Positions 4,292 to 31,080 of a stretch of DNA of 64,000 bases are shown here, piece by piece. This stretch comes from a virus. The DNA is taken from IMG/VR virus record IMGVR_UViG_3300045988_138952, positions 4,722-68,721 of that record; one strand, written 5' to 3'. A program made the position numbers and the translations under genes. Position 1 is the first letter of the stretch. The number at the start of each line of letters is the position of its first letter. The notes below the pieces were generated by a model, which worked only from the letters and a program-made list of their open reading frames with translations, was not told the origin of the DNA and did no database searches.

Positions 4292-5275
4292 TTAACCCCA
4301 GTAGTTGTTACAACCACAACCGCTACGCCCATACATTGCATCACCGGCGTAAGCACCGAAAGCCGCAGCACGAGCTATCTCAGGGTTAAATGCTTGCAAT
4401 TGCGGGTATGGCACTGCTACCGTAGGTGGCATCTTGCATTTTATTCCATCGACATCGGACTGCAATGCCTGCAAGCCTGCTGCCAAAGGAGCAATCTGTT
4501 GTCCTACTGAATTCAGGATAGTAGCATTCTGGTTACGTTGGGAGATTTCAGCGGTCAAAGTGGCTTTTTCTGCTGTAAGAGCCGCAATCTTGTCCTGCAA
4601 TGCTTGGTTCTGCATAGCGTCCAACTTTGCAAGGATAGCATTGGTATTGGCGGTCGCACCGTCACGCAATGAAAGTGCATTCTGATTGGCTGTGTTGACA
4701 AGCGCGTTGGTCTGATTGCACATCGCAAGCTGGTTCTCATAGCCCATTGTGGTAATGGCGTTCTGAGTCTTGCAGCAACAATCTGCAATCTGAGTAAGAA
4801 CAGCCTGATTTCCGGACTGGAATGCGTTGATGATTTGCTGGCTTGACATGCCCACCTGATTTCCTACATTGGCGATAAGTCCCTGGATGTTGCACAGGGC
4901 GCTCTGTAACTGTTGGGTAGAGCAGTTCAAAGAAGAAGCAAGCTGGTTGATGGCATTGCCATTGCCCTGAATGGCTGACATCAGGTATTCACGACCGACA
5001 TCACCGTTAAGCTCGGCAGGCAGACCTCCACCATTGCCAAAGCGGTTGCCGAAGCCGTTACCGCCCCAACAGAACCACAAAAGGATAATCCAGATGAACC
5101 ACCACGAGCCGCCCCATTGGTCTTGGCTGCCACGTCCCTGGTTCAGTAAAGCGAGAAGTCCGGGGTCTACACCCTTGCTTCCCATCAAGTTGGGCAACAT
5201 AGCCATGATGTCAAATTTGCTTCCGCCACCATTTCCGTTGTTCCCGTCTTGGTTGAAGACATACGTTCTTTCCAT
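4292..5275 (-). CDS. Gln/Asn-rich membrane protein with Cys clusters
   Basis: G/N-rich N-terminus, one Trp-rich TM segment (WWFIWIILLWFCWGG), a long Q/N/A-rich coiled-coil-like region, a CCC cluster and a GCGCNNYWG C-terminus. Confidence 0.7.
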   Translation of the reverse strand: MERTYVFNQDGNNGNGGGSKFDIMAMLPNLMGSKGVDPGLLALLNQGRGSQDQWGGSWWFIWIILLWFCWGGNGFGNRFGNGGGLPAELNGDVGREYLMSAIQGNGNAINQLASSLNCSTQQLQSALCNIQGLIANVGNQVGMSSQQIINAFQSGNQAVLTQIADCCCKTQNAITTMGYENQLAMCNQTNALVNTANQNALSLRDGATANTNAILAKLDAMQNQALQDKIAALTAEKATLTAEISQRNQNATILNSVGQQIAPLAAGLQALQSDVDGIKCKMPPTVAVPYPQLQAFNPEIARAAAFGAYAGDAMYGRSGCGCNNYWG

Positions 5276-29432: not shown

Positions 29433-29693
29433 TTAATTATTGTTTTGCGCCTTTTTGATAGCGTTAATGCCGTTTACCATAAAATCATTGAGGGAAATTC
29501 TTTGTCCTTTCATTTCCTGCTCTTTTCTCTTTTCTTCCCACTTCCTTTTTAAATCTTCCATTTCTTTGGCTGTGTGCGTTTTTTGTTCTGTGTCTGCTTT
29601 GTCATACACTACAATCGGGGCGTCACACATAAAAAGTTCATATTGGGCGCATGTCAATACCCAGTCCATATGCCAGTTGGGGATATTAACCAT
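29433..29693 (-). CDS. tail assembly chaperone, distal (T-like) segment
   Basis: It lies between the G-like ORF and the tape measure. Its frame is the -1 frame of 29720..30196 and stays open upstream past that ORF's stop. Confidence 0.45.
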   Translation of the reverse strand: MVNIPNWHMDWVLTCAQYELFMCDAPIVVYDKADTEQKTHTAKEMEDLKRKWEEKRKEQEMKGQRISLNDFMVNGINAIKKAQNNN

Positions 29694-29719
29694 GCCCCAA
29701 AGAAGAATTAACGGTCGTG

Positions 29720-30196
29720 TCAGTTCCGGATGTTTTTCTCCGTTTGCAAATGCTGCTCCTGCCGAAGTTCTTGAAGGATACGTTCTGCTTCCTTTCTCGT
29801 CATCGTCATTATCGTGTCTCTCATTCCGGTCAGTAATGTGAAAGCATTCAAGTATTCCAGTCTTTGAGATTCCACTTTTTTTTTACCTATAAAAAGTATT
29901 CCGTACAATTCGTCATCTGTGTATTTTTTCCATAGCATACGCCAGTATATCCAATGGAAAAGTCTTATCTTCCACCAATTATTCAGAATAATGAGAGAGG
30001 CACATTTGGCAGTAACTTCATCCTCGCTTTTGCAGGAATGTAAGACATGGGTCAATTTTCGTATTGTTCCACGGTGCAGCCATTTTATGCCGAACTTTTT
30101 TCCTCTTATCGTAATATAATCTATGCTGTTCTCCAGCACGTCGTCGAGTGTTTTCTGCTCTGCTGTGGTAGGTTGATTTATTGTTTTATCGTTCAT
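29720..30196 (-). CDS. tail assembly chaperone (G-like)
   Basis: Assigned by position between the major tail protein and the tape measure. Confidence 0.5.
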   Translation of the reverse strand: MNDKTINQPTTAEQKTLDDVLENSIDYITIRGKKFGIKWLHRGTIRKLTHVLHSCKSEDEVTAKCASLIILNNWWKIRLFHWIYWRMLWKKYTDDELYGILFIGKKKVESQRLEYLNAFTLLTGMRDTIMTMTRKEAERILQELRQEQHLQTEKNIRN

Positions 30197-30259
30197 ATTG
30201 TGTTATTGTGATGTGTGAAAAAGGAGAAGGCGGCGGCAATAACGCACACCGCCATATTT

Positions 30260-30526
30260 TTAAATCAAAGAACCGTCCTGGGTAACTTCCACCGCACTGA
30301 ACTCATTGGCGGTGAATACGCTGACTGTAGCAGTTCTTTTTGCTCCGCTATTCTCGTCGACTTTGACCGTCACCACTTTCCCGCTAACCGAGGTTTTGCA
30401 CCATGTTTCCGTTGATGAAGCAGAGACAGAGCTTTCCTTGGTTGTTGCGGTAATGGTTTTCCCTGTATTATCTGCCGCGCTGGTAAAAGACAGGGACGCT
30501 GGAGCTACGGTCAGTCGGCTTTTTTT
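30260..30526 (-). CDS. -1 frame C-terminal extension of major tail protein: Ig-like / BACON-like domain (86 codons)
   Basis: From the A7 site the -1 frame reads SRLTVAPASLSFTSAADNTGKTITATTKESSVSASSTETWCKTSVSGKVVTVKVDENSGAKRTATVSVFTANEFSAVEVTQDGSLI*. It has no own start codon. Confidence 0.6.
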   Translation of the reverse strand, partial: KKSRLTVAPASLSFTSAADNTGKTITATTKESSVSASSTETWCKTSVSGKVVTVKVDENSGAKRTATVSVFTANEFSAVEVTQDGSLI

Positions 30527-31080
30527 GTCAAGAAAGCGATATTATCTTCGGAAGAGGAGCCGGACGAAGCACCATCTTCAAGTTCAATAGTTCCGCTAAG
30601 CGCAAAAGCGAATGGGGTAGTGGACGCATTCTCAAACAAGGGGCGTGCGTAAACGGCCATTCTTTTTACAAGCAGACATTTTTCTCCGTCGTCACTTATA
30701 AGCGCAAATCCTACGTTCAGTTTCTTGCTGTTTAGCACAGCAGAGAATCCCTTGAATTGCTGGTTGTTGATAGTCGCTTGCGCAATTTCAGTGGTTTTCC
30801 CAAGAAAATATTCTACCAATTCCTTGCTTACACTTGGAACGGTAGCAGCGAAAGTAATATCTCCTGCTGTACTGGTGACAGCCCAATCTGCTTGCAGACC
30901 GTGCACCTTTGTACGGTTTAATGTCGGTTCTGCTTGGGACAAGGAAAGGGTATCTACGGTAACGGGCAAATCAAAATCCGGAGTTACCGTGGCAAAATTT
31001 GCAATGCCACCCTTTACCAACATAATGGATGAAAGACCGCTAAATACATCTTTCAATTCCTGCTTTGTTTTCATTGCCAT
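30511..31080 (-). CDS. major tail protein (189 aa, zero-frame product)
   Basis: Its position immediately upstream of the chaperones and tape measure. Beta-rich sequence. Confidence 0.6.
   Translation of the reverse strand: MAMKTKQELKDVFSGLSSIMLVKGGIANFATVTPDFDLPVTVDTLSLSQAEPTLNRTKVHGLQADWAVTSTAGDITFAATVPSVSKELVEYFLGKTTEIAQATINNQQFKGFSAVLNSKKLNVGFALISDDGEKCLLVKRMAVYARPLFENASTTPFAFALSGTIELEDGASSGSSSEDNIAFLTKKAD
30520..30526 (-). promoter_or_regulatory. -1 slippery heptamer A AAA AAA
   Basis: Zero frame reads ACA AAA AAA GCC GAC TGA, so X XXY YYZ is in register, 2 codons before the stop. Confidence 0.6.

Follow-up and report, generated by a model that had tools for sequence, protein, structure and literature searches.

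In the tail tube of phage SPP1, frameshifting adds a C-terminal FN3 domain to gp17.1 to form gp17.1*, and both forms are present in virions (PMC9022992, PMC6669499). Frameshift-appended Ig-like domains have also been described in the T3 capsid, in Lactobacillus phage A2, and in Listeria phages A118, A500, and PSA (Fraser et al. 2006; reviewed in PMC5009743), and TpeX, a programmed-frameshift product, binds a host cell-wall polysaccharide (PMC6669499). For the BACON domains of phages, displayed phage BACON proteins raised epithelial-cell adherence and mucin binding in experiments (PMC13370021), and a survey of called open reading frames (ORFs) placed single phage BACON domains away from tail genes (PMC6949934). 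Here, we analyzed a tail protein gene in a 64,000-nucleotide stretch of DNA (positions 4,722 to 68,721 of the IMG/VR virus record IMGVR_UViG_3300045988_138952), which is referred to in full as the window. The gene ends in a run of seven A residues (A7), from which the -1 frame continues for 86 codons and is predicted to encode a BACON-like domain. The comparison of relatives and structure modeling suggest that recoding at this run yields a fusion of the tail-tube protein with that domain.

The A-run, the open -1 frame, and their conservation

The gene, the run, and the extension occupy the following positions in the window:

30511-31080, minus strand: tail protein gene in the 0 frame, 189 aa, ending ..NIAFLTKKAD before the stop (ORF list, fold, and synteny).
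30520-30526, minus strand: slippery run, A AAA AAA with G as the next base, set in the X XXY YYZ register and lying two codons 5' of the 0-frame TGA.
30260-30520, minus strand: extension in the -1 frame (SRLTVAPASLSF...VTQDGSLI, then the stop), 86 codons plus TAA, a predicted BACON-type beta-sandwich.

An initial annotation of this DNA had described a 189-aa ORF ending ..ACA AAA AAA GCC GAC TGA, and this was confirmed on the minus strand, where the 3' end of the 0-frame ORF reads ..GAT AAT ATC GCT TTC TTG ACA AAA AAA GCC GAC TGA. The run length is exactly seven A, divided as A, AAA, AAA, and the heptamer was correctly placed two codons before the stop. Translated in the -1 frame, the region reads ..RR, a stop codon, YRFLDKK, and then SRLTVAPASLSFTSAADNTGKTITATTKESSVSASSTETWCKTSVSGKVVTVKVDENSGAKRTATVSVFTANEFSAVEVTQDGSLI up to the next stop. 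The upstream TAA of this frame precedes the first new-frame codon by 7 codons instead of the nine that had been reported, while the stated length of the open frame was right: 86 codons are open after the shift up to a TAA at 30262-30260, and the computed fusion is 187 + 86 = 273 aa long. The third frame has many stops across the extension region. The frame had also been said to have no start codon of its own. This was accurate for ATG, GTG, and TTG, none of which occurs before the first GTG of the extension, located in mid-domain, and the ORF list of the window contains no minus-strand ORF of at least 40 aa with an ATG, GTG, or TTG start in the extension stretch; it was inaccurate for CTG, which is present as codon 3 of the extension.

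The A7 motif alone is not enriched in the window (42 matches versus 62 expected from shuffles), and therefore the significance of the site must rest on its context and on comparison. What exceeds chance is the combination of an in-register heptamer at the end of a gene, a conserved and selected open frame that fills a gap of ~250 nt with no other explanation, and Lys codons that are only AAA.

We compared the site in 80 contigs kept by a scan of IMG/VR, with tail proteins 82–100% identical at the amino acid level, and in 39 human-gut contigs obtained by a pattern scan of JGI/ENA metagenomes in which A6 to A10 were permitted. All 80 IMG/VR loci have exactly A7 in the same register with the TGA two codons on, and in all 80 the -1 frame is open without an ATG for 86 or 87 codons, the difference being an in-frame 3-nt indel. 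A7 was present in 38 of the 39 metagenome contigs, again with this register and an open -1 frame of 86 or 87 codons, which makes 118 of 119 for both scans together. The exception, L133, carries A7 and an additional G, giving an in-frame variant; this contig has 2.7x coverage, and its alignment to a 99.5% identical relative contains 32 gap openings, for which reasons it was rejected as a real variant and is probably an assembly error. In a protein-database search with the conceptual 273-aa fusion, most relatives were 182–198 aa long and ended ..FLTKKA[DAS]. The run and the open frame were also found in three more divergent lineages:

Lineage P0033, 61% identical to the window protein: ACA AAA AAA GCC TCC TGA, with 80 codons of the -1 frame past the 0-frame stop.
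Lineage P0027, 65% identical to the window protein: CTG AAA AAA AAA GCC TCC TGA, with 81 codons of the -1 frame past the 0-frame stop.
Lineage P0029, 65% identical to the window protein: TCA AAA AAA GGC TGA, with 83 codons of the -1 frame past the 0-frame stop.

The slippery register is retained in every relative with the extension, the A9 variants included. Conservation of A7 and the open -1 frame in related phages, which the initial annotation had named as a point to check, was thus found both in the scanned contigs and, as A7 or A9, in the 61–65% lineages. Relatives without the extension have no pure A-run (P0036/L109 and L112, ..FLEKDTNADAPTE; L088 with AAG AAG AAG, L097/L098 with ACT AAG, L102 with AAA AAG, and also L156), and some relatives without the extension have no Lys pair at the site. 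A scan of GTDB genomes gave one locus of 62% identity, without the extension, in the metagenome-assembled genome of an uncultured Bacteroides. The IMG/VR scan gave no locus with P0033 as the query and one with P0047, and no relative was found among 50,697 GenBank phages by megablast of the tail module or tblastn of the fusion, which returned one 26% match.

In the more distant P0089 clade (L085-L095 and L101; ~40% identity), the tail proteins end CTA AAA AAA AAG/AAA, with runs of A9-A10, and L092 and L093 have A8 where the others have A9. The -1 extension of this clade has only 13–22 codons and is hydrophilic and poorly conserved; it may be a remnant, a short functional tail, or a chance occurrence.

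The matching metagenome contigs come from the human gut. Several are 110–233 kb long, which suggests a prophage, and members of the protein cluster are annotated in Bacteroides stercoris (RGZ41194.1) and B. salyersiae (WP_368109378.1), in agreement with the earlier description of the source as a gut Bacteroidales phage.

The extensions of relatives were under purifying selection when compared with that of the window (dN/dS 0.07–0.24, with dS at least 0.9), and the variable sites at the three codon positions numbered 48, 42, and 79 of 87. In a six-frame comparison, the claimed frame had the lowest pN/pS and was free of stops; the sole other frame with low pN/pS was the antisense mirror frame, in which stops arise in L106. 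Antisense coding by the plus-strand ORFs at 30215-30415 and 30306-30590 was accordingly rejected as a mirror-frame effect only. Lys at the site is encoded by AAA in 17 of 17 codons from 8 lineages, compared with 60% AAA elsewhere in the same genes. The codon before the A-run varies in amino acid (ACA, GCA, TCA) and retains A at its third position, and in some relatives GCC GAC is replaced by GTA GAC, which alters the 0-frame peptide and leaves the -1 frame as Ser-Arg. Judged from these comparisons, the constraint at the site acts on nucleotides, not on amino acids, and the extension appears to be a real recoded part of the tail gene.

Full-length relatives of 272–274 aa also exist: P0001 is 99% identical to the fusion, and P0002 and P0004 are 78% and 72% identical over 99% of its length. 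Their junction, ..IAFLTKK-S[RLI]LTVAP.., is the predicted trans-frame sequence, and the DNA encoding these proteins (L081-L084) has A8 in place of A7. In-frame A8 alleles were found in three lineages and several samples (P0001, P0125, P0126, P0129, P0130, P0002, and P0004). As the A8 alleles encode the junction exactly, the predicted fusion is a protein directly encoded by some genomes, and these sequences indicate that it is viable. When L081 is compared with an A7 relative and one divergent patch in the tape measure gene is set aside, the only indel is the one in the A-run. L110/L111 (P0007) combine A8 with a GAA to TAA change 27 codons inside the extension, and one of their connector genes has lost 1 nt; the locus looks like a decaying prophage because of the nonsense codon and the connector frameshift. 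A6 alleles occur among the cluster members P0125-P0142, with a product of ~203 aa that has a nonsense tail.

Modeled domains of the predicted fusion

Sequence profiles did not assign the 189-aa protein to a family, as it had no Pfam match and negligible PHROG matches; the PHROG matches of the 86-aa extension were likewise negligible. An AlphaFold2 model was examined at the fold level; it was built on P0001, the A8-encoded fusion 99% identical to the predicted one, with a 54-sequence alignment. The model has a mean pLDDT of 87.4 and two beta-rich domains, and pLDDT is below 50 only at residues 169-174, in a Gly/Ser-rich stretch. In a Foldseek search against the PDB, the N-terminal domain matched tail-tube proteins of siphoviruses, with mycobacteriophage Douge 8zdj_S at E 3e-7, and further matches were lambda 8iyk_D and 8iyd_A (gpV), 9jgh, YSD1 6xgr, Bxb1, and T1 9l0f. 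The search against BFVD returned many entries named 'major tail protein', and the two-domain entries included the lactococcal 936-group 'major tail protein extension'. The gene order, with the major capsid protein (MCP) first and the tape measure protein (TMP) last, is MCP(401 aa, phrog_29)-133-107-180-134-[189]-158/86-TMP(1615). Four small connector-type genes thus lie between the MCP gene and the 189-aa gene, and a chaperone pair and the tape measure gene come after it, an order that includes no sheath gene and fits a long non-contractile tail; the Pfam family TMP_3 matches the neighboring tape measure in relatives. The modeled tail-tube fold and the syntenic position support the identification of the 189-aa protein as a siphovirus major tail (tail tube) protein, the name it had already been given in the initial annotation.

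For the extension, a match to Pfam PF13004 or PF19190 was taken as the criterion for BACON, with a PF13004 gathering threshold of 25 bits. The result of this search was divided: the 86-aa extension of the window and that of P0001 had no Pfam BACON match, even at E<=10, while orthologous extensions exceeded the PF13004 threshold (P0002, 28.9 bits; P0004, 40.7 bits; L103, 36.2 bits; L106, 32.9 bits). By phmmer, the extension of the window matches the Pfam-positive proteins P0100 (E 8e-13) and P0102 (E 8e-9), and against PDB sequences it gave only weak S-layer matches (E ~0.02). Residues ~188-273 of the model form 8 strands with pLDDT mostly above 90. The Foldseek match of this C-terminal domain was 3zmr_A, a Bacteroides ovatus GH5 xyloglucanase with an N-terminal BACON domain, which superposed over 89 columns with an rmsd of 2.5 Å, 25% identity, and E 9e-4; a further fold match was 2mw1 from B. 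thetaiotaomicron. The scores of the orthologues (28.9–40.7 bits) and the superposition of the model on the BACON domain of 3zmr_A favor the BACON/Ig-like reading proposed initially, and the extension is supported as a predicted BACON-like beta-sandwich.

BACON proteins with other N-terminal families were also found (P0100-P0120, 222–254 aa). These families, phrog_17745 and phrog_6767, are both annotated 'unknown function', and their models of 156–169 positions cover the first 150–160 residues, not the BACON domain. In P0111 (L152 5001-5702) and P0120 (L153 5001-5750), the BACON protein is in frame in the tail-tube slot, with connector genes on one side and a chaperone gene and a long, tape-measure-sized gene on the other. 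Other gut phages thus appear, from gene content and order, to fuse BACON in frame to a protein in the tail-tube position.

Possible routes to the predicted fusion and rival explanations

The comparative pattern indicates that translation of the tail-tube ORF would carry on into the extension once the frame has changed by -1 at the A-run, and we put the probability that recoding at the run yields the tail-tube/BACON fusion at about 0.8. In the proposed mechanism, most ribosomes would read through to the TGA and produce the 189-aa tube subunit. A fraction would shift to the -1 frame on A AAA AAA (tRNA-Lys), read AGC CGA CTG.. for 86 codons, and produce a 273-aa subunit in which the conserved C-terminal strand ..NIAFLTKK is followed directly by the BACON-type beta-sandwich. 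The tube would be assembled from both forms together, and sub-stoichiometric BACON domains would project from the tail. From the observed site, frame, conservation, selection, and folds, we infer that the fusion is produced in some proportion and incorporated into the tail, where it may bind glycans, mucus, or the host surface. An additional A introduced by slippage of RNA polymerase would lead to the same protein, and this route may play a part. For -1 ribosomal frameshifting specifically, we consider the odds to be about even; this route is slightly favored because of the classical register in every A7 lineage and the position of the 0-frame stop within 1-2 codons, an argument that carries little weight. 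The features near the site that bear on the route are as follows:

30459-30497, minus strand: weakly conserved hairpin (U)UCCCUG...CAGGGA(A), ~22 nt past the A-run (RNAalifold).
30221-30254, minus strand: terminator-like GC hairpin and T-run, directly 3' of the extension TAA (pattern scan).
29720-30196, minus strand: tail assembly chaperone gene, 158 aa, with an A9 run, GGT AAA AAA AAA GTG, at 29876-29884.

Several observations weigh against recoding by the ribosome or against recoding altogether. A stimulatory structure was not found: the 141-nt fold was no more stable than shuffles (z +0.6), the site region had no Rfam match, and the only conserved helix, ~22 nt downstream, is almost without covariation. 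This helix (30459-30497) has 7 almost invariant pairs, a covariation term of -0.06, and one compensatory change, and it overlaps the conserved SLSF and TGK codons; it is probably not a frameshift stimulator, and its spacing is too long for a classical one (~5-9 nt). Frameshifting in E. coli is far weaker on A AAA AAA than on A AAA AAG (PMC5009743); the host here is Bacteroides. The A6 and A8 alleles in public assemblies indicate that the run is unstable at the DNA level too. Finally, two findings are compatible with a separate start of the extension. In B. stercoris, RGZ41194.1 (P0121/P0122) is an 84-aa 'hypothetical protein' called by PGAP with a CTG start and corresponds to the extension, and in the P0029 lineage (L154/L155, ~2030-2075), the sequence TCA AAA AAA GGC TGA TGA CCG contains an ATG that overlaps the stop (TGATG).

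The same fusion could arise by transcriptional slippage, in which RNA polymerase stutters on A7 (A9 in some lineages) and some mRNAs gain one A. We regard this as a possible, if doubtful, account of the locus. A-run slippage is an established bacterial route to alternative products (PMC5009743), and A-runs of 7-10 stand at every candidate site: A7 or A9 in the tail gene, A9 in the chaperone gene, and A9-A10 in the ~40%-identity clade. It would also be in keeping with the negative searches for a ribosomal stimulator (fold against shuffles, RNAalifold, and Rfam), and the A8 DNA alleles suggest that the product with one additional A is functional. However, the X XXY YYZ register is found at every A7 and is not needed by the polymerase, although this is a weak point with a chance of ~1/3 for each independent origin; a run of seven A is short for the E. 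coli RNA polymerase to slip on efficiently; and the 0-frame stop is tight against the site, as at ribosomal frameshift sites.

The A9 run of the chaperone gene deserves comparison in this respect. Read from A9, the -1 frame has 147 codons without a stop, takes in an 86-aa ORF that had been called separately, and closes shortly before the tape measure gene (region 29433-30196); the fusion would be ~250 aa long, with the shift ~51 codons from the 3' end of G. The A9 run and the open frame are kept in all relatives, the 61–65% lineages included, with A8 in one contig. From its sequence, this arrangement appears to be a standard G/GT -1 frameshift with the same kind of site as the tail gene.

A combination of slippage and mutation, which we consider unlikely, would make the A-run a three-level switch. 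Slippage would supply a baseline of partly decorated tails, and heritable phase variation among A7, A8, and A6 would move the phage between a sparse and a full BACON coat. If true, this would tune retention on mucus or on the Bacteroides capsule; together with the chaperone A9, it would make homopolymer slippage a general recoding device of a widespread Bacteroides prophage group, and ORF-based surveys would systematically undercount adhesin-decorated gut phages. Expression controlled mainly by phase variation of the DNA is unlikely.

Very improbable in our view is that the BACON ORF is translated alone, by termination-reinitiation or from a non-AUG start at the CTG overlapping the TGA (CUGA), to give ~84 aa. 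A-rich leaders favor translation initiation in Bacteroidota, and the A-run would then be such a leader, preferred by Bacteroidota ribosomes. The sequence CTGACCG is invariant across lineages, and the two calls mentioned above fit this explanation, namely the 84-aa CTG-start ORF of B. stercoris and the P0029 lineage, where a true ATG overlaps the stop and an 83-aa ORF with a BACON match is called. However, no ATG, GTG, or TTG stands at the conserved position in the window clade or in the L103 and L106 lineages, and the Leu specified by the CTG is the conserved one in the LTV motif, with which the in-frame BACON fusions also begin. By itself, an 84-aa BACON domain would lack a part by which to attach to the virion, whereas in the in-frame fusions (A8 alleles and other phages) BACON functions as a C-terminal appendage, and strict purity of the A-run would be unnecessary for a leader. 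The ATG of the P0029 lineage arises by a 3-nt insertion, with A7 retained; in this lineage, BACON could also be a free 83-aa protein made by translational coupling. The orphan-ORF calls are a systematic mis-annotation of the recoded domain. Prodigal-type callers report fragments of 54–83 aa starting from an internal GTG or ATG, some with a BACON Pfam match.

Least credible is an explanation without recoding, namely a 1-nt deletion (by mutation or homopolymer error) in a true A8 ORF of 273 aa or A7/A8 phase variation, for which the in-frame A8 alleles in several samples and three lineages, the near-isolated A-run indel of L081, and the presence of A6 alleles can be cited, but A7 stands in 118 of 119 independently assembled contigs and across lineages with near-saturated synonymous sites, a broken gene would not hold dN/dS near 0.1 downstream, and one A8 lineage (L110/L111) shows features of decay. 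Sequencing error and a pseudogene were ruled out by the consistency of A7 and by purifying selection.

The GC-rich hairpin (30231-30254) that directly follows the TAA of the extension, and precedes the chaperone gene, has counterparts elsewhere: a hairpin and T-run with unrelated stem sequences is found at the same place in L057, L068, L082, L084, L106, and L154. Because the terminator-like hairpin follows the stop of the extension, not the 0-frame stop, the extension would lie within the transcription unit of the tail protein. The hairpin and T-run suggest that attenuation takes place where the abundant tail-tube gene gives way to the tail genes downstream of it.

Significance and comparison with known systems

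If the recoding reading is true, BACON is one more of the Ig-like modules that phages put on the tail tube by recoding, a practice then also found in temperate siphoviruses of Bacteroides, a dominant gut genus. Since gene callers miss or mis-annotate the BACON extension, surveys of 'adherence domains' in the gut virome would be biased, and the statement on single BACON domains in PMC6949934 would be qualified by the present case. Such cases would be recovered by a scan of tail-tube genes for an A-run followed by an open -1 frame. The presence of this prophage family in cultured B. stercoris and B. salyersiae genomes makes it tractable for studying the effects of the decoration on gut retention or host adsorption, and it would permit the first measurements of poly-A frameshifting or slippage in Bacteroides. 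A role in glycan or mucus adherence is suggested only by analogy with the literature on other phage BACON proteins (PMC13370021, PMC6949934). We searched the supplements of PMC13370021 for the peptide motifs of the extension, asking whether its 'single-BACON' test protein is the one described here, and found no match.

A close likeness is to SPP1. Both are siphovirus tail-tube genes with a short and a long form, and the SPP1 long form places one ~100-aa Ig-like/FN3 domain after the tube core as a sub-stoichiometric decoration. The two differ in the shift, the domain, and the host: SPP1 uses a +1 shift to add FN3 in a Bacillus host, while here a -1 shift (or one additional A in the mRNA) on A7 would add BACON in Bacteroides. 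Both SPP1 proteins have been seen in virions, and the long form described here is predicted from sequence.

The link to frameshift-appended Ig-like domains drawn in the initial annotation held in every respect tested. As in those cases, a C-terminal beta-sandwich lies in another frame without a start of its own, and the same domain is found in frame in other phages; this pattern has been explained by mobile Ig-like modules that insert sometimes in frame and sometimes out of frame. The families catalogued for the Ig-like cases are Big_1/Big_2, I-set, and FN3, and BACON (PF13004/PF19190) is not among them (PMC9022992). Our literature search found no example of a frameshift-appended Ig-like domain in a Bacteroides phage.

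A tail-tube core with a peripheral Ig-like or carbohydrate-binding decoration is also known from lambda gpV and from the lactococcal 936-group major tail protein (MTP) with TpeX, and the lambda tail-tip and tail-cap structures (8iyk_D, 8iyd_A) and the '936 MTP extension' are fold matches to the two-domain model. In contrast to the extension described here, lambda gpV has its Ig domain in frame, and TpeX follows an in-frame adhesin domain and is much longer (total 470–530 aa). The locus resembles the lambda-type G/GT system in that its tail module has a conserved site for -1 recoding, and the same phage has an A9 run one gene downstream. However, the G/GT product is an assembly chaperone absent from virions, whereas the site described here would alter a structural subunit.

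With the BACON proteins of crAss-like and other gut phages, the extension shares the Pfam family, the ecosystem, and Bacteroidota hosts. Those proteins are separate ORFs, often with tandem arrays in tail-fiber-like proteins, whereas here a single BACON domain lies behind a frameshift. Frameshift-appended Ig-like domains are thus already known, and what is new here is the BACON family, the Bacteroides prophage hosts, and a poly-A site shared with the chaperone gene.

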